DNA of 64,000 nt, taken from an uncultured Gammaproteobacteria bacterium (GTDB lineage Bacteria; Patescibacteriota; Patescibacteriia; XYB2-FULL-38-15). The stretch is from contig OZ246416.1 in the NCBI GenBank assembly GCA_965231095.1, positions 677,595 to 741,594 of the forward strand, given 5' to 3'. Below, piece by piece: positions 5,975 to 34,241 of this stretch. The stretch's first letter is position 1. The number at the start of each line of letters is the position of its first letter. The notes beneath the pieces were generated by a model that saw only the letters and a program-made list of their open reading frames with translations, had not been told where the DNA came from and ran no database searches. The position numbers and the translations under genes were made by a program.

Positions 5975-7462
5975 ATGTATTGGGCCAACTTTTTACACAT
6001 TTACCAGCCGCCGAACCAAATGCCGGATATTTTGGAAAGAATTGCTAATGAAAGCTATAGAAAATTATTTCGCGGCTTGCTCGCGAACCCCAAGGCGAAA
6101 TTAACTTTAAACATCAACGCGGGATTGACCGAGCAATTGGACAAGTATGGCTATCACGATATTATCCGCGATATAAAAAAACTCGCGGAGCGCGGCCAGA
6201 TTGAATTTACCGAAAGCGCCAAGTACCATCCTTTTATGCCGCTCACCCCTTGGGAAGAAAACGCGCGGCAAATAAAACTAAATAACGAAACTAATAAATT
6301 TTATTTTGGAAAAATTTATAAACCCCTTGGATTTTTTCCGCCGGAAATGGCCTACAGCCGAAAAATCGCCGATCTTGTTGCCTCGCTGGGCTACCACTTT
6401 ATGGTTGCCGATGAAATTTCCTACAACGGAAAAACCGAACAACTATCTTACGACAAAGCTTATACTATCAAAGGTCTCGGTAATTTTAAAATTTTTTTCC
6501 GTGATCGACGGGTGAGCAATCTCGTAATGTCGGCCATCGTGCGCACGGGAAAATCTCTCCTTGAAGCGGTGGGCGAAGAAAAAAATAAAAACAGATATTT
6601 ACTGACGGCCATGGACGGAGAAACTTTTGGCCATCACCGCCCGGGATTAGATCAGCTGCTTTTTGAAATTTTATCCTCACCAAAATTTAGGAAAATCACT
6701 CTCTCGGAAATCGCCGAACATTTTAAAACCCAAGAAATTGTTGACCCGATTGATTCAACCTGGGCTTCCTCTGAAGAGGACATCGGGCGCGGCGTGCAGT
6801 TTCTTTCCTGGAACGATCCGGAAAATCCCATCCACGCCTGGCAATGGGAATTTACCGGTTTTGTTTTAAAAATCGTGGAAAATTTGGACAAGAAAAAAGC
6901 TTATTACAAAATCGCCCGCGCCAAAATGGATGAAGCGCTCCACTCCTGCCAATATTGGTGGGCGAGCGGAAAACCGTGGTGGTCGCTTGAGATGATTGAG
7001 GGCGGCGCTTGGAAATTGCTTGACGTTCTCTATCAAATTCCGGATGTTTCCCCAAAAAATTTGGAAAAAGGAAAAGATTTTTACGGGCGGATTGTTCTCA
7101 AGGCTTTTGAGTGGCAGCGTACCGGCTACATCAGAAAATTGGCGGGCGAGCGCGGGAAAGAGGTAAAAATTCCTTTCAAAAAACGCTCGCTTCTTGCGGG
7201 AAAACCGGAAGTCTACTATGCTTTCATCAAAACTATGGATAAAGAAATGAGCAAGGCCATAAAAAATAAAGAATTTGAAAGAGCCATTCTCTGGCGCGAT
7301 GCCATTCTAAAAATTGAAAATCAAGACGATATTTACGACGCGGTGCATGCCACCGACCTCCTCCGGATGAGCGTACCGGGCGGAGATTTGGAAAAATTAA
7401 TGGATAAATACAAGACGCAATATAAAAAAATGCGCGGCGGCCAGCCGGAACAGCGCGGCTAA
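5975..7462 (+). CDS. Glycoside hydrolase family 57 protein, paralog 2, with C-terminal extension carrying a UVR-like motif
   Basis: MYWANFLHIYQPP, TAMDGETFGHH, ALHSCQYWWAS; C-terminal KNKEFERAILWRDAILKIE resembles UvrB/UvrC UVR helical hairpin. Confidence 0.65.
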   Translation: MYWANFLHIYQPPNQMPDILERIANESYRKLFRGLLANPKAKLTLNINAGLTEQLDKYGYHDIIRDIKKLAERGQIEFTESAKYHPFMPLTPWEENARQIKLNNETNKFYFGKIYKPLGFFPPEMAYSRKIADLVASLGYHFMVADEISYNGKTEQLSYDKAYTIKGLGNFKIFFRDRRVSNLVMSAIVRTGKSLLEAVGEEKNKNRYLLTAMDGETFGHHRPGLDQLLFEILSSPKFRKITLSEIAEHFKTQEIVDPIDSTWASSEEDIGRGVQFLSWNDPENPIHAWQWEFTGFVLKIVENLDKKKAYYKIARAKMDEALHSCQYWWASGKPWWSLEMIEGGAWKLLDVLYQIPDVSPKNLEKGKDFYGRIVLKAFEWQRTGYIRKLAGERGKEVKIPFKKRSLLAGKPEVYYAFIKTMDKEMSKAIKNKEFERAILWRDAILKIENQDDIYDAVHATDLLRMSVPGGDLEKLMDKYKTQYKKMRGGQPEQRG

Positions 7463-7476
7463 TTAAATTTACTAAA

Positions 7477-8553
7477 ATGAAAAAAATAAATCATAAAATA
7501 TTTTTAGATAACGCCTGGGCGATTGGATTTATGGCTCCGCGGATTAAAAAATATTGGCCCGAAGCCAAAGAACTTCTCTCCTTGAAGATTGATGTCGTCA
7601 AAATATTTCTGGATTATGTCCGCTTTACCCTGCGCTACCGCGTTTTTATAAAAACAGTCTCCGGAAAAATCTTAGAGAAAAAAATAATTTTAAAAGTTGA
7701 ACGGCCGAAAAAATTTTCCTGGCCGCCGCGCATCGGCCGCGTAGAGCGAGATTTTTTGGCCACAAAATTTTTAACAAAACACGGGCTCAAAAATCTGCTT
7801 CCCCGCCCGCTTGAATTTCATAAACCCCTTCATGCCTATCTTTATGAAGAAGTGGGCGGCGTAACTTTAAAAGAATTTATCCGACAGGAAAACTGGCAGG
7901 TGGATTATTTTTTTAAAAACGTCCCCGCGGCCATTCGCGCCCTAAAAAAAATCCACACCATAAAAATAAAACCTCCTTACGCCAACGGCAACCACAAAAA
8001 AATAATTGAAGATGGCATCCGAGAATGGTTTCTTATTATCTCCAAATATTACCCGGCCGGACGAATCCGCGGCAAGGCGATTGTTCTGGCGCTTGAAAAA
8101 ATAGAAAAAAAATATAAAAGTTATTTTTTCAGCCGAGAAAAATATTCTACCACGCACGGCGATTTCCAGGCTGACAACATTATTATCAGCCAGGACGAAA
8201 AAATTAAATTTATTGATCTTTCAGACAGTAAATTTTTCAATCCCTTAGACGACTTGGCTTCTTTTCTCGTCCAGGCTGAACTGCACTTCAAATATGTCCA
8301 GCCAAAAAATCATAAAACTCTGACGGAAAAATTAAAAAAAATAACTTACGCCGCATATTTTGGCAAAAAAATTAAAAAAGAAAATGAATTGCAAATAGAT
8401 TTCTTCGCCGCCAAAGACGTTCTGCGCATTATCACTTTTGTTTCTTTCACTCAGCGCTCTTGGCAGACAATCCAAGACCACAGTAAAATGATGGATGAAC
8501 TTTTAACTTTTACTGAAGAAAAAATTTCTGAAATTTTGAAAAAATACCTATGA
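7477..8553 (+). CDS. Aminoglycoside-phosphotransferase-fold (protein-kinase-like) phosphotransferase; possibly a sugar kinase (maltokinase-like) given context
   Basis: Brenner motif HGDFQADNIII and downstream IDLSDS; overlaps next gene by 4 bp (ATGA). Confidence 0.5.
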   Translation: MKKINHKIFLDNAWAIGFMAPRIKKYWPEAKELLSLKIDVVKIFLDYVRFTLRYRVFIKTVSGKILEKKIILKVERPKKFSWPPRIGRVERDFLATKFLTKHGLKNLLPRPLEFHKPLHAYLYEEVGGVTLKEFIRQENWQVDYFFKNVPAAIRALKKIHTIKIKPPYANGNHKKIIEDGIREWFLIISKYYPAGRIRGKAIVLALEKIEKKYKSYFFSREKYSTTHGDFQADNIIISQDEKIKFIDLSDSKFFNPLDDLASFLVQAELHFKYVQPKNHKTLTEKLKKITYAAYFGKKIKKENELQIDFFAAKDVLRIITFVSFTQRSWQTIQDHSKMMDELLTFTEEKISEILKKYL

Positions 8554-9440
8554 AATACATTGATCTCCACCTCCACTCCACTTTTTCCGAAGGCGACCTC
8601 TCGCCGCGGCAAATCATTGAACGCGCCAAAAAAGAAAATTTCGCCGTAATTTCTTTGGCTGACCACAACACCATCGACGGTGTCGCTGCCGTGATTCAAG
8701 AAGGGGCGAAAGAAAAAATTGAGGTCGTCCCTGGCGTGGAAATTTACACGGAATTCTCCGGAAAACGTTTACATCTTTTGGGATATAATTTTAATTTGGA
8801 GGATAAAAAATTAAATGACTTACTCTGGCAATCGCAAATCCACCATTTAGAATGGGCGAAAAAATCTTTAAAAAAAATGGCGGAAATTGGGCTTCAGATT
8901 GATTTTCCGGATTTAGAAAAATTAAAATCAAAGTATTGCGGCTTTCGGCACCTAAAAACCATCGTGGAAAAATATCCCGATAACATCCAAAGAATGATCG
9001 CGGATATCCGTCCGCAATTTGGCAAACCAACCTTGTTTGAATTTATAAATTTTTATTTTGCCGAAGGAAAATTCGCCCATATTCCGGAAATAAATATGCC
9101 AATCGACACGACGCTGGCGATAAAAATTATCTCCGAGGCCGGCGGCCTTCCGGTTCTTGCCCATCCGGGCCAACAACTCTCCTGGGGCGATGATCATTTA
9201 ATTTCCGAATTAAAAAATGCCGGCCTCCGCGGTTTGGAGGTTTTGTCTCCATATCACAATTGGCACCAAACCGAACATTACCAAAAATTGGCCAATGATT
9301 TAGACCTCGTGATTACCGGCGGCTCGGATTTTCACGGCGACCTTGTGGACTTTTCCCTCAAACACCAATTTGTCAAAAGCGCCTGGGATTATTTCCGCGT
9401 CCCCTGCGCCGTTTACGAAAATTTAAAAAGATATTTATAA
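8550..9440 (+). CDS. PHP-domain (polymerase/histidinol-phosphatase family) metal-dependent phosphoesterase
   Basis: N-terminal IDLHLHSTFSEGD and LADHNTIDG His-rich PHP motifs. Confidence 0.8.
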   Translation: MKYIDLHLHSTFSEGDLSPRQIIERAKKENFAVISLADHNTIDGVAAVIQEGAKEKIEVVPGVEIYTEFSGKRLHLLGYNFNLEDKKLNDLLWQSQIHHLEWAKKSLKKMAEIGLQIDFPDLEKLKSKYCGFRHLKTIVEKYPDNIQRMIADIRPQFGKPTLFEFINFYFAEGKFAHIPEINMPIDTTLAIKIISEAGGLPVLAHPGQQLSWGDDHLISELKNAGLRGLEVLSPYHNWHQTEHYQKLANDLDLVITGGSDFHGDLVDFSLKHQFVKSAWDYFRVPCAVYENLKRYL

Positions 9441-9453
9441 AATTTCTCAGGAT

Positions 9454-9527
9454 CGGCTTCAAAAAAGAAGTCGTTTTTTTTAATTAAAAAAGCTGCGCAA
9501 CTTTTTCTTGTCGCGCAGCGGTTTTTG
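9454..9527. terminator. Two rho-independent terminator hairpins (cggcttc/gaagtcg + T9; gctgcgc/gcgcagc with T-runs on both strands) separating PHP gene from the GC-rich island
   Basis: Inverted repeats followed by T tracts read directly from sequence. Confidence 0.6.
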
Positions 9528-9542
9528 TATCCTCCTCGAGAT

Positions 9543-10121
9543 CTATCCCGTCTTCAACCGACCGAGATAGAAGATCTTCGGTTCTCTCCAAAAATCTTCT
9601 CGCGCCGCCCCGATGTTCAAGGTCCTCCCCCTTAGTAACGGATAGTACAGGCCGAACTCCTCCTTGGAGATCGGCGTACCCAGGGCAACCACGGGAATTT
9701 CCCACGAAAAAACTGAGTCCCAGCGGGCGAGGCGCAGAAGATCAGAGAGCGTTCCAGGAAGAAGGTTCATGCCCCTGAGGCGCGCTTCGATTTCCAGGAC
9801 GGTCCAATGGCCCGGAACATTCTGCACTCTAAGTCGTTCAAGCTTCTCGCCTCGCTCGTCCGTTTCCTCCGGCTTCCAGGGGAAGTCTTCCTCTCGAAGA
9901 CCATCCGCGAGCGCCAGATTGCTCGTTATGAGCGCTCCACTAAACGTAGGTATGTCGCATGGCCTGAGGCTGTTGAACCAAACCGCGTCCAAAACCCGCC
10001 AGGGATCTTCGAGGAAGAACTGGAAAAGGTCGTGGTGCATCTGCCCCACCCCGACCATCTCGTGAAACTTTTCCATCTGCTCCATGCTCGGCTTTACGAA
10101 CTGCCCGGTTCCTCTTATCAT
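9543..10121 (-). CDS. Hypothetical protein encoded in GC-rich island 1 (192 aa from the AAGGAG-preceded ATG; longer TTG-initiated frame to 10247 possible)
   Basis: ~58% GC versus ~40% surroundings; SD AAGGAG 8 nt upstream of ATG at 10119-10121; consensus promoter TTGACA-17-TAAAAT at ~10238-10205 on minus strand. Confidence 0.5.
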   Translation of the reverse strand: MIRGTGQFVKPSMEQMEKFHEMVGVGQMHHDLFQFFLEDPWRVLDAVWFNSLRPCDIPTFSGALITSNLALADGLREEDFPWKPEETDERGEKLERLRVQNVPGHWTVLEIEARLRGMNLLPGTLSDLLRLARWDSVFSWEIPVVALGTPISKEEFGLYYPLLRGRTLNIGAAREDFWREPKIFYLGRLKTG

Positions 10122-10587
10122 CGTTGCCGCTCCTTTGACCCGCCAGTAGTCAGACCGCGACAGAGCCCCATGCTCCGACTTCGGCTGATACGCTGGGCGA
10201 GACAGTTGAATTTTAATCTCCTTCTTGTCCGCTGTCAACCGCCGCAAAGGGGTTTGCCAAAAGGCCTATTTTTTGTTAAAATAAATACAATTTATGAGCT
10301 TAATCGCCAATTACTAAGCAATGTCCTTAGCCCACAAAACCCAATCCCCGCAGAACTGGAGAGAAAGACCTTCTCGCCGGATTTTTAATAAATTAAAACT
10401 TGATAAAGTTAAAGAATTTTCCGCGCGGCTTCTGGGTTCTATAAAAAATAAATGGTCAAAAAATCTGTCGGCTGCTTCTCCAAATTCATCCACGGCGCGA
10501 CCAACTAATGCTCCTCTTACTCCACCCCTCCCGCCTTCCGCCGACCCAAAAAACTTTTTTTCTAAAATATTTCAAACTATTATTTTT

Positions 10588-13434
10588 ATGGCAAAAAAAA
10601 TTCGCTACAAGGCCGGAAGCTACCGCCGTAAATTCGGCTGGAATAAAATTATCGGCTATGGCATTGCCGGCATTTTATTTTGTGTTTTAATCAGCGGCGT
10701 CGTGGGCGTCGGGGCTCTGGCCTGGTTTTCCCGCGATCTTCCCGATCCTGACAAATTGCTTGACCGCCAAGTGGCGCAAAGCACAAAAATTTTTGACCGC
10801 ACCAGCGAGCACGTACTTTATGAAATTTACAGCGACCAGAAGCGCACCATGATTGAACTTGAAGACATTCCTGAATACGTAAAACAAGCGACCATTGTCG
10901 CCGAAGACCGCGGATTCTATACTCATCATGGTTTTGATTGGAAAGGAATTTTGCGTTCCGTCTGGCTGGATATTTTTAAGGGACAAAAAGTCGGCGGCTC
11001 AACCATCACTCAACAACTCGTGAAAAACGCCATTCTTTCTCCGGAAAAAACTTTCACCAGAAAATTTAAAGAGTTGGCGCTTTCCATCCAGATTGAAAGA
11101 AAATTTTCCAAAGATCAGATTTTAAAAATGTATTTTAACGAAATTCCTTACGGCTCAACCGCTTATGGCATTCAATCCGCCTCGCAAACTTATTTTGGAA
11201 AAAATGCCAAAGATTTGGATCTCGCCGAAGCAGCCTTGCTCGCCGGAGTGCCCAAAGCTCCAACTTACTATTCTCCTCGCGGCAGCCACACTGACGATTT
11301 AATTTTTCGCCAGCAATATATTTTAGACGGTATGGTTGAAGAGGGTTATATCACCGAAGACGAAGCCGACGCGGCAAAAAAAATTGATATTCTTGCCAGA
11401 GTTATTGATAAAAAAGAATCAATTACCGCGCCGCACTTTGTAATGTATGTTAAAGAATTGTTGACGGAAAAGTACGGTGAAAAAATCGTGGAGCAAGGGG
11501 GTCTCAAAGTTTATACCACCCTTGATTTTGATAAACAAAAATTCGCCGAAGAAGCGATTGAGGAAAACGTGGAAAAAAATTCTACCAAATATAATGCCTG
11601 GAACGCGGCGCTCGTGGCTATTGATCCAAAAACCGGACAGATTCTTGCCATGGTCGGCTCCAAAGATTATTTTGCCGAGCCGGAGCCGGAAGGATGCGAC
11701 CCGGGAGTAAATTGTAAATTTGAACCGAACGTCAACGTCACTCTTCGCCCGCGCCAGCCGGGATCTTCTTTCAAGCCAATCGTCTACGCTACGGCATATC
11801 AAAAAGGTTTTACTCCGGAAACTACGCTTTTTGATTTGGTGACAACTTTTAAAACCGACACCAAAGATTATACCCCGCACAATTACGATGACAAAGAACA
11901 TGGCCCGGTTTCTATGCGGTCTGCTATGGCCGGCTCGCTGAATATTCCCGCCGTGAAAACTTTGTATCTCGCGGGGATTGATAATGTCCTAAATTTGGCT
12001 CAAGCCATGGGCTATACAACCTTAAACGACCGCTCGCGTTTTGGGCTTTCTCTTGTTTTGGGCGGCGGCGAAGTGCGCTTAATGGAGCACGCTGCGGCTT
12101 TCGGCGTTTTCGCCAACGACGGAGTACTTCATACTACAACTCCAATTTTAAAAATTGAAGATGCCAAGGGACAAGTGCTTGAAGAATGGAAAGAAGACGC
12201 GGGCAAAGAAGTGATGTCAAAGCAAACCGCGCGGCAAATTCAAAGTGTAATGTCTGACGACGCGGCGCGCGCTTTCATCTTCGGAGCAGGAGGTCCGCTT
12301 ACTCTTCCCGGCCGGCCAGTCGGCGCGAAAACCGGTACGACCAATGATTGGCATGACGGCTGGACAATGGGTTATACTCCCTCGCTTGTCGCCGGCGTTT
12401 GGGCGGGAAATAATAATAACGACGCGATGAAGCGCGGAGCCGACGGGGTGTTTGTCGCCGCTCCGATTTGGAACGCGTTTATGAAAAAAGCGCTGGAAGG
12501 AACGCCGGTGGAAAATTTCCGATCGCCAGAACCGACGGAAACCGATAAACCGATTTTAAAAGGCGAACTGGGCGCGGAAACTATTATAAAAATTGACCGC
12601 ATCTCGGGAAAATTAGCCACGGAAAATACTCCGCCCTCCACAACTATTGAAAAAAAATTCCGCGAAGTGCATACCATTTTATTTTACATAAATAAAGACG
12701 ATCCAAACGGCCCGCCTCCGGCAAATCCGGCCGACGATCCGCAATTTGCCAATTGGGAAGCGCCGATTGCCAAGTGGGCCGAGGAGCAAGGATACACGAT
12801 TAATACCCAAGAAATTCCGACCGGCTACGACGACGTTCATCTGCCGCAAAATAAACCAACTGTTTCTATTACAAGTCCCGCGCCGAATGCGACGATAAAC
12901 TCGCGCGAAGCAATTGTCTCGGTTTTCGTCTCCGCGCCGCGCGGCGTAATTTCCCGCGTAGAATATTTTGTTGACGGACAAAAAGTGGGGATGTCTAATG
13001 TTACGCCATACACTGCGACGCTTATGATCCCAAATTCTATCAGCAATGGTTACCATACGTTGCGCGCCACGGCCTACGATGATATTGATAATTTCAATTC
13101 CGCGGAAATTACAATCAACTTGCTCGCGGAAAATCTCCCGCCGCAAATTAATTTTACGGCCCCAAGAAACGGCGCGAATTTCTACGCTTCCATGTTTCCT
13201 CTTTCGGTCACCGCCGAAGCAGATGATATCGGAAACATCGCGGAAATTTCTTTTTATGCTAAAGGTTCCGGCGAACCGGAATTGCTGAAAACATATTCCG
13301 CACCAACTGAAACCTCTTTCTCTTTCCGTTGGGACACTTCTCCCGCGCCGGGTTCTTACCAACTCTACGCCGAGGTAACCGACAAATCCGGCGCCACCAC
13401 CCGATCCAGACCGATTTCGGTGACGGTGTTGTAA
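10588..13434 (+). CDS. mrcA: Penicillin-binding protein 1A (bifunctional transglycosylase/transpeptidase) with two C-terminal Ig-like domains
   Basis: TM anchor after MAKKIRYK; GT51 motif EDRGFYTHHGFDW; transpeptidase SSFK, SLN, KTGT motifs; in-frame upstream extension from 10321 judged unlikely. Confidence 0.9.
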   Translation: MAKKIRYKAGSYRRKFGWNKIIGYGIAGILFCVLISGVVGVGALAWFSRDLPDPDKLLDRQVAQSTKIFDRTSEHVLYEIYSDQKRTMIELEDIPEYVKQATIVAEDRGFYTHHGFDWKGILRSVWLDIFKGQKVGGSTITQQLVKNAILSPEKTFTRKFKELALSIQIERKFSKDQILKMYFNEIPYGSTAYGIQSASQTYFGKNAKDLDLAEAALLAGVPKAPTYYSPRGSHTDDLIFRQQYILDGMVEEGYITEDEADAAKKIDILARVIDKKESITAPHFVMYVKELLTEKYGEKIVEQGGLKVYTTLDFDKQKFAEEAIEENVEKNSTKYNAWNAALVAIDPKTGQILAMVGSKDYFAEPEPEGCDPGVNCKFEPNVNVTLRPRQPGSSFKPIVYATAYQKGFTPETTLFDLVTTFKTDTKDYTPHNYDDKEHGPVSMRSAMAGSLNIPAVKTLYLAGIDNVLNLAQAMGYTTLNDRSRFGLSLVLGGGEVRLMEHAAAFGVFANDGVLHTTTPILKIEDAKGQVLEEWKEDAGKEVMSKQTARQIQSVMSDDAARAFIFGAGGPLTLPGRPVGAKTGTTNDWHDGWTMGYTPSLVAGVWAGNNNNDAMKRGADGVFVAAPIWNAFMKKALEGTPVENFRSPEPTETDKPILKGELGAETIIKIDRISGKLATENTPPSTTIEKKFREVHTILFYINKDDPNGPPPANPADDPQFANWEAPIAKWAEEQGYTINTQEIPTGYDDVHLPQNKPTVSITSPAPNATINSREAIVSVFVSAPRGVISRVEYFVDGQKVGMSNVTPYTATLMIPNSISNGYHTLRATAYDDIDNFNSAEITINLLAENLPPQINFTAPRNGANFYASMFPLSVTAEADDIGNIAEISFYAKGSGEPELLKTYSAPTETSFSFRWDTSPAPGSYQLYAEVTDKSGATTRSRPISVTVL

Positions 13435-13500
13435 TTAAAACAGGCACTTGATTACATAGCTTGAAAAACTTTTTAATTAAAATTAAATAAAAAAATTAAT

Positions 13501-13575
13501 AGTTTATATAATACCCGTTAGCTGAAATATTAAAAAATTCTTTTCGGCCTTTGCGGGCATTTAATCGGGGCAAAT
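13501..13575 (-). repeat. Inverted-repeat arm (left) of the UvrA-like cassette; contains gttagctgaaatatt core shared with repeats at 1043-1065, 1460-1484 and 15002-15071
   Basis: 13514-13575 is the near-exact reverse complement of 15002-15071 (perfect 16-bp tttaatcggggcaaat/atttgccccgattaaa at the gene boundaries). Confidence 0.7.
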
Positions 13576-13606
13576 TTATTTTTAAAGATTTAGAATTCGG
13601 AAAATT

Positions 13607-14995
13607 ATGAAATACATAACAGTAAAAAATATCACCAAGAATAATCTGAAACGATTTTCAGTTAAAATACCATTGCAAAAACTGGTCGCCATTGTTGGTC
13701 CGAGCGGAAGCGGCAAGTCTACGTTGGTTCATGAAGTGTTATATAACAATTCAATCAAAAAAGAGTGGGATATAAAAAATCTACCGAAAATTGTTGATAT
13801 TCTTGAACAAAAAGTAATTCTTCCAAGGGATTCAAAGTTGAGTCTAGGTGAATTTAACTTTGATAAATTAAAAAAGAAATTATCCGCAATTCATAAGGAA
13901 GATTTGTTGATTGTTGATGAACCCTGTGCTGGATTTTGTGAGAAAGAGCGAAAGACAATTTTGAAAATGTTAAAAGATAAAGTTAAGCAGGGATATTCAA
14001 TAATTGCAGTTGAACATAATAAGGAAATTATTGCTAATGCTGATTATGTAATTGAGCTTGGTCCCGGGGCTGGACGATATGGCGGAAAATTGATTTTTGA
14101 GGGAAATCTAAATGAATTTAAAAAGTCTGGCACAATTACGGCTGAACATGTTTTTAAGGCAAACAAAGACGCGGTAAAGCAAGGAACTTTTGAGAAAGGC
14201 AAAGAAGTTACAATTTCAAAAATATCTGCTGGAAATTTTAAAAATTACAGTTTTACATTTCCGCTCATAAGTATAGTTTGTTTAACTGGCTGTTCTGGTA
14301 GCGGAAAATCAACCTTATTGGATGTCGCTTATCGTGCTTTATTTAAAGGAAAAAATGCTTGGAAAATTAGATTAAAAACGGTTAACGTTAATGGAAAAAC
14401 TAATGTACGTAGGTCGTTTATTGTTCCACAATCTTCGATTGGAGATCATCCATCAAGCACGCTCGCGACCTATGCAAAAGTTTGGGATAACATAAGGGAG
14501 ATTTTTGCGAATGAAAAACTGGCAAAGCAGTTAAGATTAACGAAATCAGATTTCATTATTTCAAAAAGTATTTTGGAATCAAAAAGTGATTTTTCAAAGG
14601 ATGTTTTAAAAGTTTGCTATCAAAGGAAAAATATCAAAGAAGTTGCAAATCTTACGATTGATGAGGCATTAGAAATATTTGAAACTGACACTCTAATAGT
14701 GAGAAAATTGAAATTTTTACAGGAAGTAGGCTTAGGCTATTTGGTGCTTGGACAAAAATCAGGTTCTTTAAGTGGTGGAGAAGCTCAGCGAGTAAGAGTT
14801 GCAAAAATTCTTTCAAAAAAACTTGGCGATAGGTCTGTCTATATTTTTGATACTCCAACCAGAGGATTACATCTCAAAGATATTCCAGTACTAATAGATG
14901 TTTTTAGAAAAATTATAGACAAAAATAATACAATTTTAATAGCAGATAACAGAGAGGAAGTATTTCATTATTGTGACTATCGGATAAATCTTTAA
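13607..14995 (+). CDS. Minimal UvrA-like tandem ABC ATPase (two NBDs, no zinc-finger/UvrB-binding/DNA-binding insertions)
   Basis: Walker A GPSGSGKSTLVHEVLY and CLTGCSGSGKSTLLDVAY (UvrA-style), degenerate signature LSLGE, Walker B LLIVDEP...VEHN...GPGAG; signature LSGGEAQRVRVA and VYIFDTPTRGLHLKD (UvrA C-terminus-like, Glu to Thr); ~31% GC. Confidence 0.7.
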   Translation: MKYITVKNITKNNLKRFSVKIPLQKLVAIVGPSGSGKSTLVHEVLYNNSIKKEWDIKNLPKIVDILEQKVILPRDSKLSLGEFNFDKLKKKLSAIHKEDLLIVDEPCAGFCEKERKTILKMLKDKVKQGYSIIAVEHNKEIIANADYVIELGPGAGRYGGKLIFEGNLNEFKKSGTITAEHVFKANKDAVKQGTFEKGKEVTISKISAGNFKNYSFTFPLISIVCLTGCSGSGKSTLLDVAYRALFKGKNAWKIRLKTVNVNGKTNVRRSFIVPQSSIGDHPSSTLATYAKVWDNIREIFANEKLAKQLRLTKSDFIISKSILESKSDFSKDVLKVCYQRKNIKEVANLTIDEALEIFETDTLIVRKLKFLQEVGLGYLVLGQKSGSLSGGEAQRVRVAKILSKKLGDRSVYIFDTPTRGLHLKDIPVLIDVFRKIIDKNNTILIADNREEVFHYCDYRINL

Positions 14996-15001
14996 AAATG
15001 C

Positions 15002-15153
15002 ATTTGCCCCGATTAAATCTTTTGCCTTTAGGTAAAAGCCGAAAAGAATTTTTTAATACATCAGCTAACAACGAGTATCTGGTTTCGACTTTTTACAAAA
15101 GTCTCCACCCAAATGCTACGCACTTCAGATACTCGTAACGTTAGGCGAAATGA
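15002..15153 (+). repeat. Right inverted-repeat arm of the UvrA-like cassette fused to leader repeat copy B (hairpin stem 15072-15081/15127-15136, nested hairpin gacttttgtaaaaagtc) ending ...aacgttaggcgaaATG
   Basis: Matches 13514-13575 in inverted orientation and copy A (946-1067) in flanks and stem register. Confidence 0.65.
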
Positions 15154-15815
15154 TTCATTTATCACCCACCATGTCAAACACTATCCTTCAAGAAAAAGAC
15201 AGCGTGATTTACGCCAATTGTATGGCGGAATTGAAGGATCGTCTAAACAAAATAGAGTCTTCGCTGGATAAAAATTTTTCATTAGATATTTTTTTACTAG
15301 AATTTATTTGTCTACAATTCAGAAAAATATGCGAACTATTCGCTTTCGGAACTTTGATAGCTAGTAAAGATCTTTACAGACAAGTCAGAAAAGATTTCAG
15401 TAATGATTGGAACTTTGCTAGAATATTAACAACTGTAGAAAAAATTAATCCACGATACTTTCCAAAACCATTAAAATATGAGGGCAACAAAGCCTTTGCC
15501 GTCGTAACAAATGACTTTCTACTTCAAAAAAATATTATAGATATTTACGATGAATGTTCCGACATGATAAATGCCCAAAATCATTTCAAAGATTTGAAAA
15601 ATTTTTATCCAAATAGTGATGAGAAAAGAGATATTTGGCGTAAAAAATTCACAGAATGGAAAGAAAAATTTATTAAATTATTTGACTGCCATACAATTGG
15701 CATAAAGACTGATTTATATACAAAAGTTTTTATCACCTTCATGTATATAAATAATCCGAGCAAAGATATCAATGTTATCGCAGCGGATGTCATTCCAAAG
15801 CCAAAAGATAAATAA
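15150..15815 (+). CDS. Hypothetical protein, AT-rich, partner of UvrA-like ATPase (alternative start 15171)
   Basis: 221-aa ORF directly after repeat copy B; no recognisable motif; composition matches upstream AT-rich gene. Confidence 0.45.
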   Translation: MIHLSPTMSNTILQEKDSVIYANCMAELKDRLNKIESSLDKNFSLDIFLLEFICLQFRKICELFAFGTLIASKDLYRQVRKDFSNDWNFARILTTVEKINPRYFPKPLKYEGNKAFAVVTNDFLLQKNIIDIYDECSDMINAQNHFKDLKNFYPNSDEKRDIWRKKFTEWKEKFIKLFDCHTIGIKTDLYTKVFITFMYINNPSKDINVIAADVIPKPKDK

Positions 15816-17274: not shown

Positions 17275-18423
17275 TTACTTTTTTATCGGCATGACGATAT
17301 AGAGATAATCAGATTTTTCTGTTTTTGACCGGAGAAGGCACGGGCTTTCGCTGGAAGTTAATTCCAGCGCCACCTCTTCCACCTCCATGGCGCCGAGCCC
17401 GTCTAAAAGATATCTGTAATTTAAAGTTATTTCATTTTCTTTTCCCTCAACTTCCGCTTCAAGTTTTGCTGTGTTTTCGCCAAACTGTGAGTTCGCCGAG
17501 GATAAAACCAACTCGCCTGATTTTTCTTTTCCCGGTTTAAAACCAAAAGTGACATCAAAAATTCCGGGCTTGGCGAAAAGACTGGCGGTTTTTACAACCT
17601 TAATCAGTTCGTTGCGATTAAAGCCGGCCTTGGTTTCATAACTCGCCGGAATAATTTGTTTGTAATCGGGATACTGGCCGTCAATTACCCTCGAGACAAG
17701 ATCCACCCCGTTTAGGGAAAACATAATTTGATTTTCCGCCAGATATATTTTCACCAAATTTGGCGCATCGGGATCATCGCTCTCTCGAAAAACGGATAAA
17801 ATTCTCAAGACTTCTTGCATGGTTCTGGCCGGGACAATCACGTCGCGGGAATTTTCGTTTTCTTTTCCGGTGAGGGCCAGGGTTTTTTCCGCCAAGCGGT
17901 AACTGTCGGTCGCGGCGACCACAACTTTCATCCCGGCTCCGTCAAAATGCATTAAAATGCCGCTGATTTCCGGCCGGATTTCGTTGGTGGACGTCGCGAA
18001 AACCACCTGGGTCACTGCCTCACGAAATTTTCCCGCGTCCAGGCTGTACCCGGCGGTTTTTTCCACTTCGGGGATCAATGGGAATTCGCTCGTTGCCGCG
18101 CCGCGAAGCCGCGTCTCGTAATTTTTACATTTTATTTCCAGGGTTTGGTCTTGCAAATCCAAATCAATTTTGTCGTTTGGCAGGGAGCCAACGTAATCGG
18201 CAAAAAGTTTTGCCGGCAGAGTTATTGCTCCGTCAGCTTCAATTTTCCCCCGCACCTCGCACTTAATTCCAATCTCAAGATTTGTCGCGATAAGCGTAAT
18301 TACTCCGCCCTCGGCGCGAAATAAAATATTATTTAAAATGGGCAGATTAACGTTTTTGCTCGCGATGTGGCTTGAAATTAAAAGCCCCCGATTTAAATTT
18401 TCTTGAGTACAGGAGAGTTTCAT
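17275..18423 (-). CDS. dnaN: DNA polymerase III beta sliding clamp
   Basis: 382 aa, MKLSCTQENLNRGLLISSHIASKNVNLPILNNILF N-terminus typical of DnaN; downstream of dnaA. Confidence 0.9.
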   Translation of the reverse strand: MKLSCTQENLNRGLLISSHIASKNVNLPILNNILFRAEGGVITLIATNLEIGIKCEVRGKIEADGAITLPAKLFADYVGSLPNDKIDLDLQDQTLEIKCKNYETRLRGAATSEFPLIPEVEKTAGYSLDAGKFREAVTQVVFATSTNEIRPEISGILMHFDGAGMKVVVAATDSYRLAEKTLALTGKENENSRDVIVPARTMQEVLRILSVFRESDDPDAPNLVKIYLAENQIMFSLNGVDLVSRVIDGQYPDYKQIIPASYETKAGFNRNELIKVVKTASLFAKPGIFDVTFGFKPGKEKSGELVLSSANSQFGENTAKLEAEVEGKENEITLNYRYLLDGLGAMEVEEVALELTSSESPCLLRSKTEKSDYLYIVMPIKK

Positions 18424-18712
18424 AAAAATGTTTTAGTTTTATTTGTTGGTTGTATGTTTTGCACAATCAATCTTTTGTTTTATATTTTTAAAATATAGTA
18501 ATAACAAGCGTTTTGATTTTTGTGGATAGTTTTTGAAAAACGTTTTTGTTTAAAGAAAATTTTCATCTAGGCGGCTGTGGAAGAAAAATTTTTAGTTGTG
18601 GAAGTTTGGTGGAGAAAATTTGTGCCTTGGAGTTTTTTGGTTTTTTATCCCCATCTTAACAATTTTCTTCCACACAATTTTCCACCGAGTTTTGCACAGC
18701 CACTTTTTATTT
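18424..18712. promoter_or_regulatory. oriC: Candidate oriC: AT-rich dnaA-dnaN intergenic region with at least 6 DnaA-box-like 9-mers
   Basis: TGTGGATAG 18521-29, CTGTGGAAG 18575-83, TTGTGGAAG 18596-604, TTATCCCCA 18645-53, TTCCACACA 18668-76, TTTCCACCG 18680-88 (consensus TTATCCACA). Confidence 0.55.
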
Positions 18713-20074
18713 TTAGTTGTACAATCTTTGTTTTATTTGTTCTATTTCTTGTTTCAGCCGGTCGCTTGTTTCCACCTCGCGAGTGATTTTATCAAAGGCG
18801 TGCATGGCGGTTGTATGATCGCGGCCGCCGAGCTCCTGGCCGATCGCCGGGTATGAACTTTCTAATTCTTTTCTCATCAAATACATCACAATTTGTCTCG
18901 GAAAAGCCAGGCGTTTCTCGCGGGATTGTCCCAAAAGATCGTCAAGCCTTAAATCATAAAATTCCGCGACGGTATTTATCAGTTGTTTTGGTGTGGCGGA
19001 TTTTCTTCCGGAAACGACGTGGCTTATAAGAATTTTTTTTACTAAATCAAGCGTTAGCGGAACATGTTGGAACTGTTCGTAAGCAATAATTTTGTTTAGG
19101 GCGCCCTCAAGTTCTCTGATGTTGTTTTGGATAATGAGCGCAATGTGATCAACAATGTTTTGATCTAAAATAAGCCCCTTTTCAGCACATTTTGCTTTTA
19201 AAATAGCAATGCGCGTTTCATAATCCGGTTGGGAAATATCTGCAATCATCCCCCACTCAAAGCGGGAGATAAGCCGTTGTTCAAGCGCCGGAATCGCTTT
19301 GGGCGGTCGATCGGAAGACATAACAATTTGTTTGTCGGCTTGATGTAGGTCGTTAAAAGTATGAAAAAATTCTTGCTGGGTTCCGTCTTTCGCGGCCATG
19401 AACTGCACGTCATCAATTAAAAGAAGATCGGGGGTGCGGTAAGTTTGTTTAAATTTTTCCGTGGTTCGGGAGCGGATGGCCTGGACATAATCATTGGTAA
19501 ATTTTTCGCTCGTGGTATAAAGAACTTTTTTGCTCGGGTCGGCTTCTAAAATCGCGTGGCCGATTCCTTGGAGAAGATGCGTCTTCCCCAGCCCCACGCC
19601 GCCATAAATAAATAAAGGATTGTAAGTGCTCTTCCCGGGATTTTTGGAAACAGCTTGCGCCGCGGCATGAGCCAATTCATTATTTTTTCCGACAACGAAA
19701 CTCGGGAAAGTATATTTTGGATTTAATCCGAAGCGATTGCTCGGGACTTCGGCCGAGGCTGTTGGTTTTTCGGTTGGTTCGTGCGTCGCGGCGGAAGGAA
19801 TTTCCACCCGTTGTGTTTGAGGCTTTACTGCCTCCACGCGATAGGCAACTTCCTTGATGTGGCAGCCGACGATTTTTTGTAAAGTTTTTAAAATGGATTG
19901 GTGATATTTATTTTCCAACCACGCTTTGGTAAAAGTATTTGGCACGCCGACCGTAATCTTTTCTCCATCAATAAGAGAAATAGCGGTGTTTTTAAACCAA
20001 GTGGTAAAGTTGGCTTTTGTGAGAGAGAGTTCAAGCTCGCCCAGAACCGCCTGCCAAAGTTGAAGGTTTGTCAT
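18713..20074 (-). CDS. dnaA: Chromosomal replication initiator protein DnaA
   Basis: AAA+ Walker A GVGLGKTHLL, sensor motifs, C-terminal HTH; 453 aa. Confidence 0.95.
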   Translation of the reverse strand: MTNLQLWQAVLGELELSLTKANFTTWFKNTAISLIDGEKITVGVPNTFTKAWLENKYHQSILKTLQKIVGCHIKEVAYRVEAVKPQTQRVEIPSAATHEPTEKPTASAEVPSNRFGLNPKYTFPSFVVGKNNELAHAAAQAVSKNPGKSTYNPLFIYGGVGLGKTHLLQGIGHAILEADPSKKVLYTTSEKFTNDYVQAIRSRTTEKFKQTYRTPDLLLIDDVQFMAAKDGTQQEFFHTFNDLHQADKQIVMSSDRPPKAIPALEQRLISRFEWGMIADISQPDYETRIAILKAKCAEKGLILDQNIVDHIALIIQNNIRELEGALNKIIAYEQFQHVPLTLDLVKKILISHVVSGRKSATPKQLINTVAEFYDLRLDDLLGQSREKRLAFPRQIVMYLMRKELESSYPAIGQELGGRDHTTAMHAFDKITREVETSDRLKQEIEQIKQRLYN

Positions 20075-22790: not shown

Positions 22791-22955
22791 TTTGATTGGG
22801 GGAAAAATTGATTAGGTTTTTCTTTGATAAGTTTAAAGAAAAACTGTTTTTTTGTCAACAAATTTAGAGAAATCCACAAAATATCCACAGGGGGAGATTT
22901 TTAATAAAAAAGCCCGGCGATTTGTAGTCGCAGGGCGGGGAGGCCGGCAGGGGCG

Positions 22956-23168
22956 TCAGCTGCAAAGAATCTGGTGGCAGCCGTCTTCGCCCGGATCGTT
23001 GGGACAGCCGCAGCGCGGGCAAAGATGGGCTTCCGGCGATTGCTCCTCTTCGGGCAGACCGTCGGGAGGCAGGTATGTGCCGGGCAGACCGTAGAGAAGC
23101 CATTCGCCGACTTCTTCGTCCGTCACCCCAGAGGGAGATGGTTTTTGCAGCACTCTCTTGCTTGCCAT
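22956..23168 (-). CDS. Small zinc-ribbon protein (CPRCGCPNDPGEDGCHQ), GC-rich island 2
   Basis: 70-aa ORF with AGGAGG SD 5 nt upstream; ~63% GC. Confidence 0.45.
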   Translation of the reverse strand: MASKRVLQKPSPSGVTDEEVGEWLLYGLPGTYLPPDGLPEEEQSPEAHLCPRCGCPNDPGEDGCHQILCS

Positions 23169-23297
23169 GGTTTCCTCCTTTCCGTGGCATACAGATTAAT
23201 ATACTCGGGAAGAGGTTGTTTGTCAAGGTTATAAATAAAAAACAGGGCGGGCGATGCATTGGCTTCCGAAGAAACCTTGCATCACCCGCCCGAGCTG

Positions 23298-23738
23298 TCA
23301 AGCCGCCACCGTTGAGGCGGCCTCGCTGTCCTCCTTCTTGGGGAGAAAGGTCGTGGTGGCCCGCTGGCCATCCCCTTTCGCCCCCCTCGCCGCGTCGAGC
23401 ACCAGGCTCACGGCCGTGAGCCGCCGTCCGACCGTCTCGGTATACGCCCGTTCCGCGGGGGTCCACTTTTCCGGCTCGCCGCCGAGCAAGAGCTCGACCT
23501 CTTCTCGGAGAGTGGCGAACTCCGCCTCGCGCCTCGCCCTGATCGTCTGGATATCGGTGTCCGTGAGCTTGGCGGCCCACACCGCGAACCAGTCGACCGG
23601 ACCCTTGCCGCGCGTGACCTGGGCCGCGAGACCCTGGGTCACCGCCAACTCGTAGATGTCCACGATTGGCTCGGCCTTCGGCTTGCCTCCGAGTACCCCT
23701 CCCAGCCACTGTCCGAGCTCCGTGTCTTTTCCGCTCAT
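23298..23738 (-). CDS. Hypothetical protein, GC-rich island 2
   Basis: 146-aa ORF, GGAGGAGGAG SD; consensus promoter TTGACA-17-TATAAT on minus strand at ~23846-23818 overlapping palindrome tttgtcaa-gagctt-ttgacaaa. Confidence 0.5.
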   Translation of the reverse strand: MSGKDTELGQWLGGVLGGKPKAEPIVDIYELAVTQGLAAQVTRGKGPVDWFAVWAAKLTDTDIQTIRARREAEFATLREEVELLLGGEPEKWTPAERAYTETVGRRLTAVSLVLDAARGAKGDGQRATTTFLPKKEDSEAASTVAA

Positions 23739-23817
23739 TTTCTCCTCCTCCCGTCTGGCGGAAAGCTACTTTTCCGCACAATTTGCCAATCATGTAGCTT
23801 TTTATTATATAATAAGG

Positions 23818-30878: not shown

Positions 30879-30955
30879 AAAAACACCCCGGGAGCGTATG
30901 ACGTTCCAAGGGTGGCAAACGGTCGACGTGACGAACACGCGAAGCGCGACACCTC

Positions 30956-31222
30956 CTATCGCTTCGCCGCGGGAATCTGCCGCAGCACAGCTTCGGTGCA
31001 GGGAACATTGGCCAAGGCTGGCCCTCCTGTCCCACCGGTGCCGAAGTAGGCGAAACAGAGGTCGGTTCTCGGATCCTTCGCGTAGACCATGTTCCCGACC
31101 CAGTAGTTGACCTCCCCGCCGAGTTGCTCGGACACTGACACTGGCGGGTCATAGCAGCTCGCGCAGAATGTGAAAACGCCGAGCAGAAGAGCTAACGCCA
31201 AAAGCGACCAAAACTTCTTCAT
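30956..31222 (-). CDS. Small secreted lipoprotein-like protein, GC-rich island 3
   Basis: MKKFWSLLALALLLGVFTFCASC signal/lipobox; GGAGGA SD before ATG 31220-31222; ~58% GC; own promoter TTGACT-17-TACATT (minus). Confidence 0.5.
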   Translation of the reverse strand: MKKFWSLLALALLLGVFTFCASCYDPPVSVSEQLGGEVNYWVGNMVYAKDPRTDLCFAYFGTGGTGGPALANVPCTEAVLRQIPAAKR

Positions 31223-31344
31223 CTCTCTTCCTCCTCGTCCAGGGAAGATGATTTTCACCCAGACAAACCAATGTAACACGATCTTACATACAAGTCAAGG
31301 TTAGTGTAGGAAAAATGATTGTGGAAAAACTGGGGAAAAGCCCC

Positions 31345-31624: not shown

Positions 31625-33161
<1,537 letters not shown>

Positions 33162-33357
33162 AGGGAGAAAAAAATATTGTCCCCCTCACGGGACAAGATT
33201 GGTCGAAGTTTCATTTATTTGAAACTTTCAAAGTTATTAGGTGTGAAAAGATAAGAAAGCCGTACTTCTGTTACTTCAAGTTGTCAAATGCAAAAATGAT
33301 TGGTAAACTCTTGCAAGAACCAATCATTTTTGTTATCATTTTAGAAGTATATTTCGT

Positions 33358-33434
33358 GGGCGCGTAGCTCAGTCGGTTAGAGCGCGTCACTGATAATGAC
33401 GAGGTCGGAGGTTCGATTCCTCCCGCGCCCACCA
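33358..33434 (+). tRNA. tRNA-Ile (GAT), CCA encoded
   Basis: Cloverleaf folded by hand: acceptor gggcgcg/cgcgccc, anticodon loop ctGATaa. Confidence 0.9.
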
Positions 33435-33443
33435 TGAATTTTT

Positions 33444-33650
33444 ATGAAAGAAAGAGAACACGGACCAGAAAGAAAGTTGAATAAATATACCTATTGTGAT
33501 AATTCGGCGAAGGGTGAAGTTATTTTTGAATGCGTTGCTGAAAATATACTTGAAGCGGATAAACTCTACGAGGCGGCAACGGGCAAAAATCCGGAAAAGC
33601 AAAATCATGTTGGGTGCTCCGTAGAAAAAATAGAAGAAAATAAAATTTAA
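33444..33650 (+). CDS. Small hypothetical ORF between tRNA-Ile and tRNA-Phe
   Basis: 68-aa ORF only; no motif. Confidence 0.2.
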   Translation: MKEREHGPERKLNKYTYCDNSAKGEVIFECVAENILEADKLYEAATGKNPEKQNHVGCSVEKIEENKI

Positions 33651-33658
33651 TTATTCTT

Positions 33659-33730
33659 GCCGGGGTAGCTCAGTGGTAGAGCGAAGGACTGAAAATCCTT
33701 GCGTCGTGAGTCCGATTCTCACCCCCGGCA
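33659..33730 (+). tRNA. tRNA-Phe (GAA)
   Basis: acceptor gccgggg/ccccggc, anticodon loop ctGAAaa. Confidence 0.9.
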
Positions 33731-33746
33731 TTTGGCATTTTAAAAC

Positions 33747-33817
33747 CGGGGTGTAGTACAACGGTAGTATGCATGCTTTGGGAGCATGAGACCCGGGTTC
33801 AATTCCCGGCACCCCGA
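33747..33817 (+). tRNA. tRNA-Pro (TGG)
   Basis: acceptor cggggtg/caccccg, anticodon stem catgc/gcatg, loop ttTGGga. Confidence 0.85.
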
Positions 33818-33844
33818 TAAAAGTCCCGTGACGGGAATTAAATT

Positions 33845-34165
33845 ATGGAAAACGACAAAGATCTCGAAATTTTACCCCCAGAAGAAGTAGCGGAGAAAAT
33901 AAAAAATTTTCCCGGTTGGATTTATGCGAACGATAAAATAACAAAAACTTTTTTGTTTCCGACTTTTGATGATGGGCTGGCTTTAGTCGGCGAGCTCGCG
34001 CCTTTTTCCAATAGAATTGATCACCATCCGGATATTCATATTTATTATAAAAAAATAGTTTTTGATCTGCAGCGTTTTAGCGTTGGCGGAAAAGTGACTG
34101 AGCGAGATTTTACAGTCGCAGAAGAAATCGAACGTTTATACGCGGCGAAAAATTATAATTTATAA
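33845..34165 (+). CDS. Pterin-4a-carbinolamine dehydratase (PCD/DCoH)
   Basis: EIERLYAAKNY and DHHPDIHIYYKK match PCD signature [EDKH]x3H[HN]Px5-6[YW]. Confidence 0.7.
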   Translation: MENDKDLEILPPEEVAEKIKNFPGWIYANDKITKTFLFPTFDDGLALVGELAPFSNRIDHHPDIHIYYKKIVFDLQRFSVGGKVTERDFTVAEEIERLYAAKNYNL

Positions 34166-34169
34166 AATT

Positions 34170-34241
34170 GCGGGCGTCGTATAATGGCTATTATGTCACC
34201 CTTCCAAGGTGAAAATGCCGGTTCGATTCCGGTCGCCCGCT
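34170..34241 (+). tRNA. tRNA-Gly (TCC)
   Basis: acceptor gcgggcg/cgcccgc, anticodon stem tcacc/ggtga, loop ctTCCaa; D-stem imperfect. Confidence 0.75.

Follow-up and report, generated by a model that had tools for sequence, protein, structure and literature searches.

Why should a genome whose native genes do without Shine-Dalgarno (SD) sites carry, between two conserved genes, a single GC-rich gene with a consensus promoter, a strong SD site and a terminator of its own? We addressed this question for a locus in a 64,000-nt stretch of an uncultured member of the Patescibacteriota (assembly GCA_965231095.1, contig OZ246416.1, positions 677,595 to 741,594). This 64-kb stretch is referred to here as the window, and all coordinates are positions in it. 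The gene encodes a 192-amino-acid (aa) product and lies on the minus strand between the PHP and PBP1A genes, and a sequence-only reading of this DNA had described it as a single foreign-looking gene. Comparison with related loci (the compared loci are labelled L001 to L014) leads us, with moderate confidence, to see it as a moron-like chromosomal accessory cassette whose alleles are exchanged by recombination and whose expression is SD dependent and involves a conserved leader RNA.

The unit and its insertion site

The unit measures ~810 bp and holds its own promoter, a 5' leader of ~82 nt, an SD site, an open reading frame (ORF) and an intrinsic terminator, all on the minus strand. Its parts and the adjoining signals are as follows.

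9441 to 10253, minus strand: whole inserted unit, with limits from blastn of the empty-site loci L012 and L013
10238 to 10210, minus strand: sigma-70-type promoter, TTGACA (10238-10233), 17 nt, TAAAAT (10215-10210), matching 11/12 consensus positions in a promoter scan
10135 to 10205, minus strand: conserved 5' leader with a 27-bp imperfect hairpin (alignments A2, A3, A6 and A7)
10130 to 10135, minus strand: SD site AAGGAG, 8 nt 5' of the ATG at 10121
9543 to 10121, minus strand: ORF P0001, 192 codons, TAG stop at 9543-9545, with an identical gene call in public data, where the exact protein is on a contig of 886 kb
9520 to 9542, minus strand: short 3' untranslated region (UTR) of variable sequence, with GAGGAGG (9531-9537) right behind the stop
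9482 to 9519, minus strand: intrinsic terminator of the unit from a terminator scan, stem-loop at 9492-9519 (GCUGCGCGACAAGAAAAAGUUGCGCAGC) followed by a T tract (U6)
9454 to 9483, plus strand: terminator of the PHP gene, hairpin at 9454-9473 with a T tract, from the terminator scan and comparison with the single hairpin of the empty sites
10254 to 10282, plus strand: right half of the ancestral PHP terminator hairpin at the insert boundary, also the PBP1A promoter TTGCCA-17-TAAAAT; present in L012 and L013

The minus-strand promoter, the AAGGAG ahead of the frame and the terminators on both sides had been proposed from the sequence alone, and each was recovered here. The unit's own hairpin (9519-9492, minus strand) and that of the PHP gene on the plus strand, each with its T tract, stand back to back.

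In JGI, ENA, Logan and NCBI assemblies of related Patescibacteria, the unit adjoins the PHP gene, and the exact protein or relatives of it are encoded next to that gene in the occupied loci (the window, L001/L002, L003/L008, L004, L010 and L011). Relatives, in which the sequence-only reading had advised looking for the gene, differ in carrying it: six related loci have the unit at the same place, and the site is empty in three (L012, L013 and L014), the closest relative included. The PHP proteins of these empty-site relatives are 87%, 84% and 75% identical to that of the window. PBP1A follows PHP after ~110 nt in L012 and L013, while in L014 PHP is followed by ROK and then PBP1A. In blastn comparisons, the homology of L012 and L013 to the window ends at 9440 and restarts at 10254/10268, and the insert therefore spans ~9441 to 10253, which is almost exactly the extent that had been given for a self-contained unit between PHP and PBP1A.

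A worry that the unit might be an assembly chimera or a contaminant, for which the sharp change in composition at both junctions could speak, did not survive comparison with other assemblies. The independently made Logan assembly L005 matches window positions 6543 to 13121 (6,579 nt) at 100% identity and spans both junctions, six other metagenomic loci carry the unit, and it stands beside PHP in the assembly sources named above. We therefore regard the probability of this explanation as practically nil.

The empty site contains a single bidirectional hairpin, ATCAGCC-attgccaaaa-GGCTGAT, which is the PHP terminator and whose loop holds the TTGCCA -35 box of the PBP1A promoter. At occupied sites, copies or halves of this hairpin flank the unit on both sides in several loci, and the PHP terminator at 9454-9483 appears by this comparison to have diverged from a copy of the ancestral bidirectional hairpin. 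The unit ends carry A-rich direct repeats, which were considered as a target-site duplication and rejected, being mostly explained by the back-to-back terminator tracts and the duplicated hairpin copies. No integrase, transposase or reverse transcriptase domain was found in the 10 flanking genes scanned (~8 kb), and no tRNA gene lies nearby. The neighbours (RuvC, GH15, GlgA, GH57, APH, PHP, PBP1A, ABC ATPase, UMPH-1, VIT1, DnaN and DnaA) include no phage genes. Judged from these alignments, presence of the cassette varies among close relatives as an insertion/deletion polymorphism.

The PHP-PBP1A site of L001 (6800-11450) is occupied by a larger variable island. Besides the 189-aa homolog, this island comprises a GC-rich, SD-led multi-pass membrane protein of 269 aa, a class I methyltransferase and three unknown genes (295/307, 132 and 208 aa). 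In L003 the site holds just the membrane protein, the homolog and the methyltransferase.

Coding alleles, protein family and leader RNA

A footprint of the unit was obtained as mean pairwise identity over five distinct lineages, with the following values.

30 nt 5' of the -35 box: 49%
-35 box: 100%, invariant
17-nt promoter spacer: 46%, length constant
-10 box (TAAnAT): 85%
68-nt leader: 93%
spacer from the SD site to the ATG: 46%
3'UTR: 37%
terminator hairpin: 92%
T tract and 16 nt: 97%
next 40 nt past the terminator: 36%

The coding sequence (CDS), promoter spacer and 3'UTR are 37-65% identical and stand beside near-invariant boxes, leader and terminator. The promoter is thus supported phylogenetically. 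The same footprint indicates that purifying selection acts directly on promoter boxes, leader and terminator, and leader and terminator appear to be conserved in primary sequence and not in structure alone. The extreme conservation of leader and terminator, the hypervariability of the CDS and the upstream frame that is open through the leader had no part in the sequence-only reading. This frame is open upstream of the ATG only because of the conserved leader, and for the same reason a mechanical ORF call returns 234 aa. The TTG-extended ORF was rejected: its TTG start lies inside the conserved -35 box, no ATG or GTG occurs between the -10 box and the annotated ATG, and a hand count on alignment A6 shows no periodicity by codon in the leader substitutions (third position, 6; first, 5; second, 3).

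Between the close relatives L001 and L003, the flanking genes are 89-98% identical in aa sequence, 88-94% in nucleotide sequence and 78-85% at third positions, whereas their cassette CDSs are only 61%, 66% and 48% identical, respectively. The window and L011 share non-coding DNA that is 97-100% identical over ~160 nt 5' of the ATG and ~140 nt 3' of the stop, around CDSs with 53% aa identity, a synonymous divergence (dS) of 1.36 and indels. The window allele is nearest to that of L001 (65% aa and 68% third-position identity), yet the flanking genes of the two are less alike at third positions (49-58%) than their cassette CDSs. The allele tree thus conflicts with the flanking genes, and this incongruence argues for allele replacement by recombination and not for clock-like divergence. 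Synonymous sites between alleles are saturated (dS > 1 in all pairs but one), and the ratio of nonsynonymous to synonymous divergence (dN/dS) is 0.13-0.37 (~0.25). On this comparative evidence, the coding alleles appear to be old (dS > 1) and subject to purifying selection, and their distribution disagrees with that of their flanks.

L011 (JAHIRI010000074.1) is mosaic at 1400-1560. The non-coding DNA around its cassette is ~99% identical to the window through the last ~35 nt of a window-type PHP gene, after which homology breaks off abruptly and a much more AT-rich, divergent PHP/APH pair lies beyond. The mosaic reflects either recombination at the locus or a chimeric short contig of a metagenome-assembled genome.

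Protein searches covered 5.8 billion clustered proteins, and a HMMER scan covered 1.84 billion representatives of ~15 billion. The family consists of seven members in the protein collections plus the L011 allele, which came from a DNA search, that is, ~8 among ~15 billion proteins. Four members are close, P0005 is 44% identical, and P0007 and P0008 are distant (22-25% identity). The full HMMER scan contributed just these last three, besides P0006, which was discarded as a spurious low-complexity match. Four full-length homologs are 53-64% identical with a mean column identity of 73%, and many Trp, Pro, Asp and Gly positions are invariant among the alleles. These conserved motifs, together with the dN/dS values, identify a genuine protein gene.

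As had been said of it from the sequence alone, the 192-aa product contains no motif that can be named, and it has no credible match in Pfam, NCBIfam, PHROGs, PADLOC or the PDB sequence profile. Two AlphaFold runs, from alignments of 4 and 7 sequences, gave unreliable models (pLDDT 33 and 49); a Foldseek search against the PDB returned nothing at E < 1, and no fold could be assigned. The protein is apparently a cytoplasmic orphan. Its distant homolog P0007 stands alone between RNase J and HtrA in another genome without SD sites, with terminators on both sides. The P0007 gene is preceded by GAAAGGAGG, its GC content is that of its host, and its leader differs from that of the close alleles. The family as a whole is thus characterised by a strong SD site and a stand-alone architecture, and GC richness is confined to the close subfamily.

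Every allele has a leader that folds as a single imperfect hairpin of 27 bp, beginning no more than ~3 nt from the inferred transcription start and stopping 5 nt short of the SD site. All but two of the leader substitutions fall in bulges or loops or preserve pairing. Standard pairs make up 98.5% of the pair cells, and the changes include a compensatory one (A-U to G-C) and five that are one-sided and compatible. In four of the five folded alleles (window, L001, L003 and L004), the ensemble has the SD site mostly unpaired; the exception is L010, in which two of the four SD bases are mostly paired. No Rfam family was found for the leader in gathering-threshold and E-value scans. A covariance model of the leader (R1) matches the six loci only, always before the cassette gene, with no extra copy in the window and none at the locus of P0007. 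A search of metagenome contigs with leader 20-mers yielded one true locus, L008 (the same as L003); L006 and L007 from this search were rejected as chance matches inside unrelated genes.

In the apical helix, the 5' arm carries a copy of the SD sequence GGAGC and is paired to GCUCU, which could alternatively pair with the real SD site. In L003 the anti-SD (GCUUC) and the SD sequence (GGAGGC) change compatibly, so that pairing is kept (alignment A6). The SD-sequestering fold is 8-14 kcal/mol less stable than the hairpin, and a simple thermodynamic switch is therefore not supported. Pairing between leader and terminator (7 nt by eye, UGUCGCG with CGCGACA) was also considered and rejected, as it is broken by the L001 terminator variant.

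A purine-rich SD-like motif (GAGGAGG, CAGGAGG, AGGAGGG, GGGGGAG or GAGGGGAGGG) lies 5-15 nt past the stop in the window, L001, L003, L004 and L010. GGAGG, GGGAG or GGGGAGGG occurs within ~5-15 nt of the stop in every allele, and the rest of the 3'UTR is unconserved; no ORF follows the motif in the 3'UTR.

Base composition and SD-led genes

The GC content is 54.3% over 9452-10260 and 56.0% over the CDS (9543-10121), compared with a window mean of 43.8% (standard deviation, 5.9%; 700-nt windows), which places the island at the 97th percentile. The contrast of 58% in a ~40% background that had been read from the sequence is therefore real, with figures slightly overstated. Relative to 43 native genes, the GC content of the ORF has a z score of 3.1 and its tetranucleotide distance one of 2.9, and so the windowed and tetranucleotide checks named in the sequence-only reading both find the unit atypical. 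The deviation is largest for the GC content at third codon positions (GC3), which is 0.68 versus 0.41 ± 0.07 in the native genes (native maximum, 0.56; z = 3.8).

GC3 is 0.62-0.72 in all six close alleles, and 0.40-0.58 in their genomes. As this bias persists across divergence at dS > 1, it is maintained and is not a decaying donor composition; amelioration toward host composition is not seen among the diverged copies. No homolog was found in INPHARED phages, PLSDB plasmids or IMG/VR viral contigs, and no donor emerged from the phage, plasmid, viral-contig or protein collections. Every family member with a readable genomic context has housekeeping genes of the Patescibacteria type around it; the L004 sequence is too short for such a judgement. 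The unit thus appears restricted to a small Patescibacteria clade, for which Candidatus Kuenenbacteria is the nearest named group by PHP similarity (51-54% identity). From these comparisons, the GC island does not appear to mark a recent import from a GC-rich donor at this locus. Of the earlier description of a foreign-looking single gene, the inserted, self-contained unit stands, while a recent foreign GC-rich import is not supported, given the old alleles, their GC3 values and the lack of any donor in the collections searched. For the lasting GC3 richness there are two candidate causes, selection acting on the mRNA and, as the locus would recombine frequently, GC-biased gene conversion.

The ~40 native window genes have A/T-rich upstream regions and no SD site, in agreement with the sequence-only reading. 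Strong SD sites are essentially confined to GC-rich orphan units, likewise in the related loci L001 and L009 (three host genomes), and an SD site precedes all cassette alleles as well as P0007 in hosts whose native genes are SD-less. Many Parcubacteria have no anti-SD motif (PMC9297842). In contrast to the frequent loss in that group, the 3' end of the 16S rRNA in the window (~33140-33159) is CACCUCCUUUCU and retains CCUCCU. The arrangement otherwise resembles that of SD-poor genomes, in which native genes are SD-less and a handful of genes have strong sites. The rpsU gene of Bacteroidia is reportedly one such SD-led gene in an SD-poor genome; here, in contrast, the SD-led genes are GC-rich orphan cassettes and not ribosomal protein genes.

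At least three more window genes share the style of the unit, being GC-rich and of no known family, with a consensus promoter, a strong SD site and a terminator.

23298 to 23738, minus strand: 146-aa gene in the island at 22860-23800, GC3 0.84
22956 to 23168, minus strand: 70-aa gene in the island at 22860-23800, GC3 0.63
30956 to 31222, minus strand: 88-aa ORF with a lipoprotein-like signal peptide in a unit at ~30900-31300, GC3 0.73

The unit between PHP and PBP1A is therefore one instance of a class. The island at 22860-23800 lies between trigger factor and clpP-side genes; each of its two small orphan genes has its own TTGACA-17-TATAAT/TATATT promoter, AGGAGG site and terminator. The unit of the 88-aa ORF, just upstream of the 16S rRNA gene, has a TTGACT-17-TACATT promoter and a GAGGAGG site and ends in a terminator. 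None of the three products has a Pfam match. Most of the other GC-rich segments of the window, at 53-59 kb, belong to a giant 3,118-aa ORF (51999-61355; GC content of 0.51, and 0.56 at second codon positions), whose GC bias stems from amino-acid composition and not from GC3.

Interpretation and significance

Phage morons are independent promoter-gene-terminator units between conserved genes, a concept from the comparative genomics of lambdoid phages. The cassette resembles them in having its own promoter and terminator, a single accessory gene and a deviating base composition, and in being inserted between genes that are adjacent in relatives (the empty sites of L012, L013 and L014). It differs in its chromosomal housekeeping setting (glycogen genes, PHP, PBP1A, dnaN/dnaA), in the lack of any phage homolog among those searched and in having ancient alleles that are exchanged at a fixed locus. 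In this last respect it is closer to the hypervariable allelic loci kept by recombination and balancing selection, such as pherotype, agr specificity and antigen loci, which also combine near-identical flanks with deeply diverged alleles and a conflict between allele phylogeny and genome background. Unlike at those loci, the cassette product is a small, apparently cytoplasmic orphan with no partner gene, and presence or absence is polymorphic as well.

The leader can be compared with the 5'-terminal stabiliser stem-loops and STAB-SD elements of Gram-positive mRNAs (ermC, aprE and cry3A), with which it shares a stable hairpin a few nucleotides from the inferred 5' end and an exposed strong SD site next to it. 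To our knowledge, stabiliser hairpins are not normally conserved in primary sequence; in contrast, this leader is 93% identical across alleles with saturated synonymous sites. Riboswitches and ribosomal-protein leaders are likewise strongly conserved, structured 5'UTRs right before a ribosome binding site, but the cassette leader has no Rfam match, forms a single unbranched hairpin, is limited to one gene family and has no favourable alternative fold. An integron gene cassette was rejected, as the unit has its own conserved promoter and no integrase domain occurs in the flanking genes scanned (attC models were not searched specifically). A recently acquired genomic island fits poorly too: composition is atypical, but there is no donor or homolog outside the lineage in the collections searched and no amelioration. 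The accessory cassette and hypervariable locus are thus of a known type, while the protein family and the conserved leader RNA are unclassified.

The cassette sits in the bidirectional terminator hairpin between PHP and PBP1A, and in the mechanism that we propose this intergenic site would be prone to recombination and the cassette would be gained and lost among close relatives. Lineages may swap alleles by homologous recombination, the crossovers falling in the leader, the terminator and the CDS ends that are conserved, and biased gene conversion or mRNA selection would uphold their GC3 richness. Expression would proceed by SD-dependent initiation in a genome whose other genes do without it, and the 5'-terminal hairpin may both leave the SD site exposed and stabilise the mRNA. 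The sequence-level conservation of the leader suggests recognition by a specific factor, and the hairpin is probably the binding site of such a factor (a protein or small molecule) that tunes expression. The protein could be a cytoplasmic factor under diversifying or frequency-dependent pressure, for example in phage or host-interaction conflict; the depth of allelic divergence, the polymorphic presence of the cassette and its variable surroundings give a weak hint of a role in conflict or interaction.

Several observations weigh against this account. Covariation in the leader is not significant: with one compensatory pair and little variation, 199 of 500 shuffles do as well. The hairpin energy is no better than that of shuffled sequence (z = -0.4), the leader being GC-rich, and the six known loci provide five distinct leaders. 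The transcription start is inferred from the -10 box. Conservation of leader and terminator could also partly reflect homogenisation by the allele-swapping recombination itself. Finally, nothing links the protein to conflict functions, as PADLOC, PHROGs and Foldseek gave no match and the structure models are of low confidence.

Part of this concern can be stated as an explanation of its own, in which leader and terminator are conserved merely as crossover arms under concerted evolution, forming a generic hairpin and terminator with no sequence-specific RNA role. Mosaic breakpoints do lie in or beside the leader and terminator, invariant stretches of 24-25 nt suffice for RecA-type recombination, and the regions outside (the promoter spacer and the DNA beyond the terminator) track lineage while the 3'UTR tracks allele. 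However, the breakpoints between the window and L011 fall inside the CDS ends and not in the arms, and preservation of the -35 and -10 hexamers around a saturated 17-nt spacer points to fine-scale selection within the same segment. Very frequent exchange would also be needed between lineages that are ~75% identical in flanking DNA, and we give this explanation rather low credence. Another possibility is that the leader is a riboswitch or another ligand- or protein-responsive switch, with GGAGC as anti-anti-SD, GCUCU as anti-SD and AGGAGC as SD. It would account for the 93% conservation, loops and bulges included, beside saturated sequence, for the SD repeat in the apical 5' arm and for the paired change of anti-SD and SD in L003, and the lack of a known Rfam family also counts in its favour. 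Yet the cost of the sequestered fold, the different leader of P0007 and the nonsignificant covariation all speak against it, as does a motif that precedes one gene only, unlike most riboswitches; such a switch seems doubtful.

Recent horizontal gain of a single gene from a GC-rich, SD-using donor, with composition and signals as leftovers, would explain the atypical GC content, GC3 and tetranucleotides, an SD site unlike native genes and the empty site in the closest relatives, and the three further GC-rich, SD-led genes of the window could share an outside source. We nevertheless consider it unlikely: among ~15 billion proteins homologs occur only in this Patescibacteria clade, the phage, plasmid and viral-contig collections hold nothing, and the promoter is of the host type (compare TTGCCA-17-TAAAAT of PBP1A). 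Furthermore, the six alleles, at dS > 1, all have the same high GC3 range in AT-richer genomes, as expected of a bias at equilibrium. A diversity-generating retroelement, or a similar system aiming hypermutation at the CDS, would fit the constant flanks and variable centre, and genomes of the candidate phyla radiation (CPR) are rich in such retroelements. It is very improbable here, as no repeat of the unit of at least 14 nt, and hence no template repeat, exists elsewhere in the window, no reverse transcriptase is present in the 10 flanking genes scanned, and indels and saturated synonymous sites extend along the whole CDS at a dN/dS of ~0.25, with differences at all codon positions.

Other features of the window concern its wider setting. 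Directly after PBP1A comes an AT-rich segment (13500-15800; 30-35% GC) with genes for an ABC-type ATPase of 462 aa with two P-loops and for an unknown protein of 221 aa. L012 has a TPR-like gene (479 aa) in this position and L001 a gene of 266 aa, and so the position may be another variable spot. The dnaN and dnaA genes lie at 17.3-20.1 kb (17275-20074), and the cumulative GC skew has its minimum at ~13-14 kb, remains low as far as ~26 kb and climbs steadily from there. This probably places the region of the replication origin in the window, no more than ~10 kb away from the cassette. The 16S rRNA gene and tRNA-Ile, then tRNA-Phe, tRNA-Pro and tRNA-Gly, occupy 31625-34241; no 23S or 5S rRNA gene occurs anywhere in the 64-kb window, and the rRNA genes thus appear unlinked.

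Genomes of CPR/Patescibacteria are small, come mostly from uncultured cells and abound in unknown genes, and their expression control is little understood. The locus between PHP and PBP1A offers a compact example of an accessory cassette whose gain, loss and allele swapping all take place at one fixed position in the chromosome. It also cautions that a GC island need not signal recent foreign DNA, as the bias here has outlasted saturating divergence. Conservation of the leader and terminator far exceeds that of the encoded protein, and the leader is on this account a candidate for a new cis-regulatory RNA. The association of GC-rich orphan genes with strong SD sites in SD-less genomes suggests two translation-initiation modes per cell. 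A more far-reaching and quite tentative proposal, which we think rather improbable, is that the leader is a new Patescibacteria-specific regulatory RNA (a ligand or protein sensor, or a recognition site shared with the equally conserved terminator) and that the SD-led GC-rich cassettes (at least four genes in the window) form a distinct expression class. If so, the cassettes would be translated through SD/anti-SD pairing while core genes initiate without it, and fast-evolving CPR accessory genes would have a built-in translational switch.

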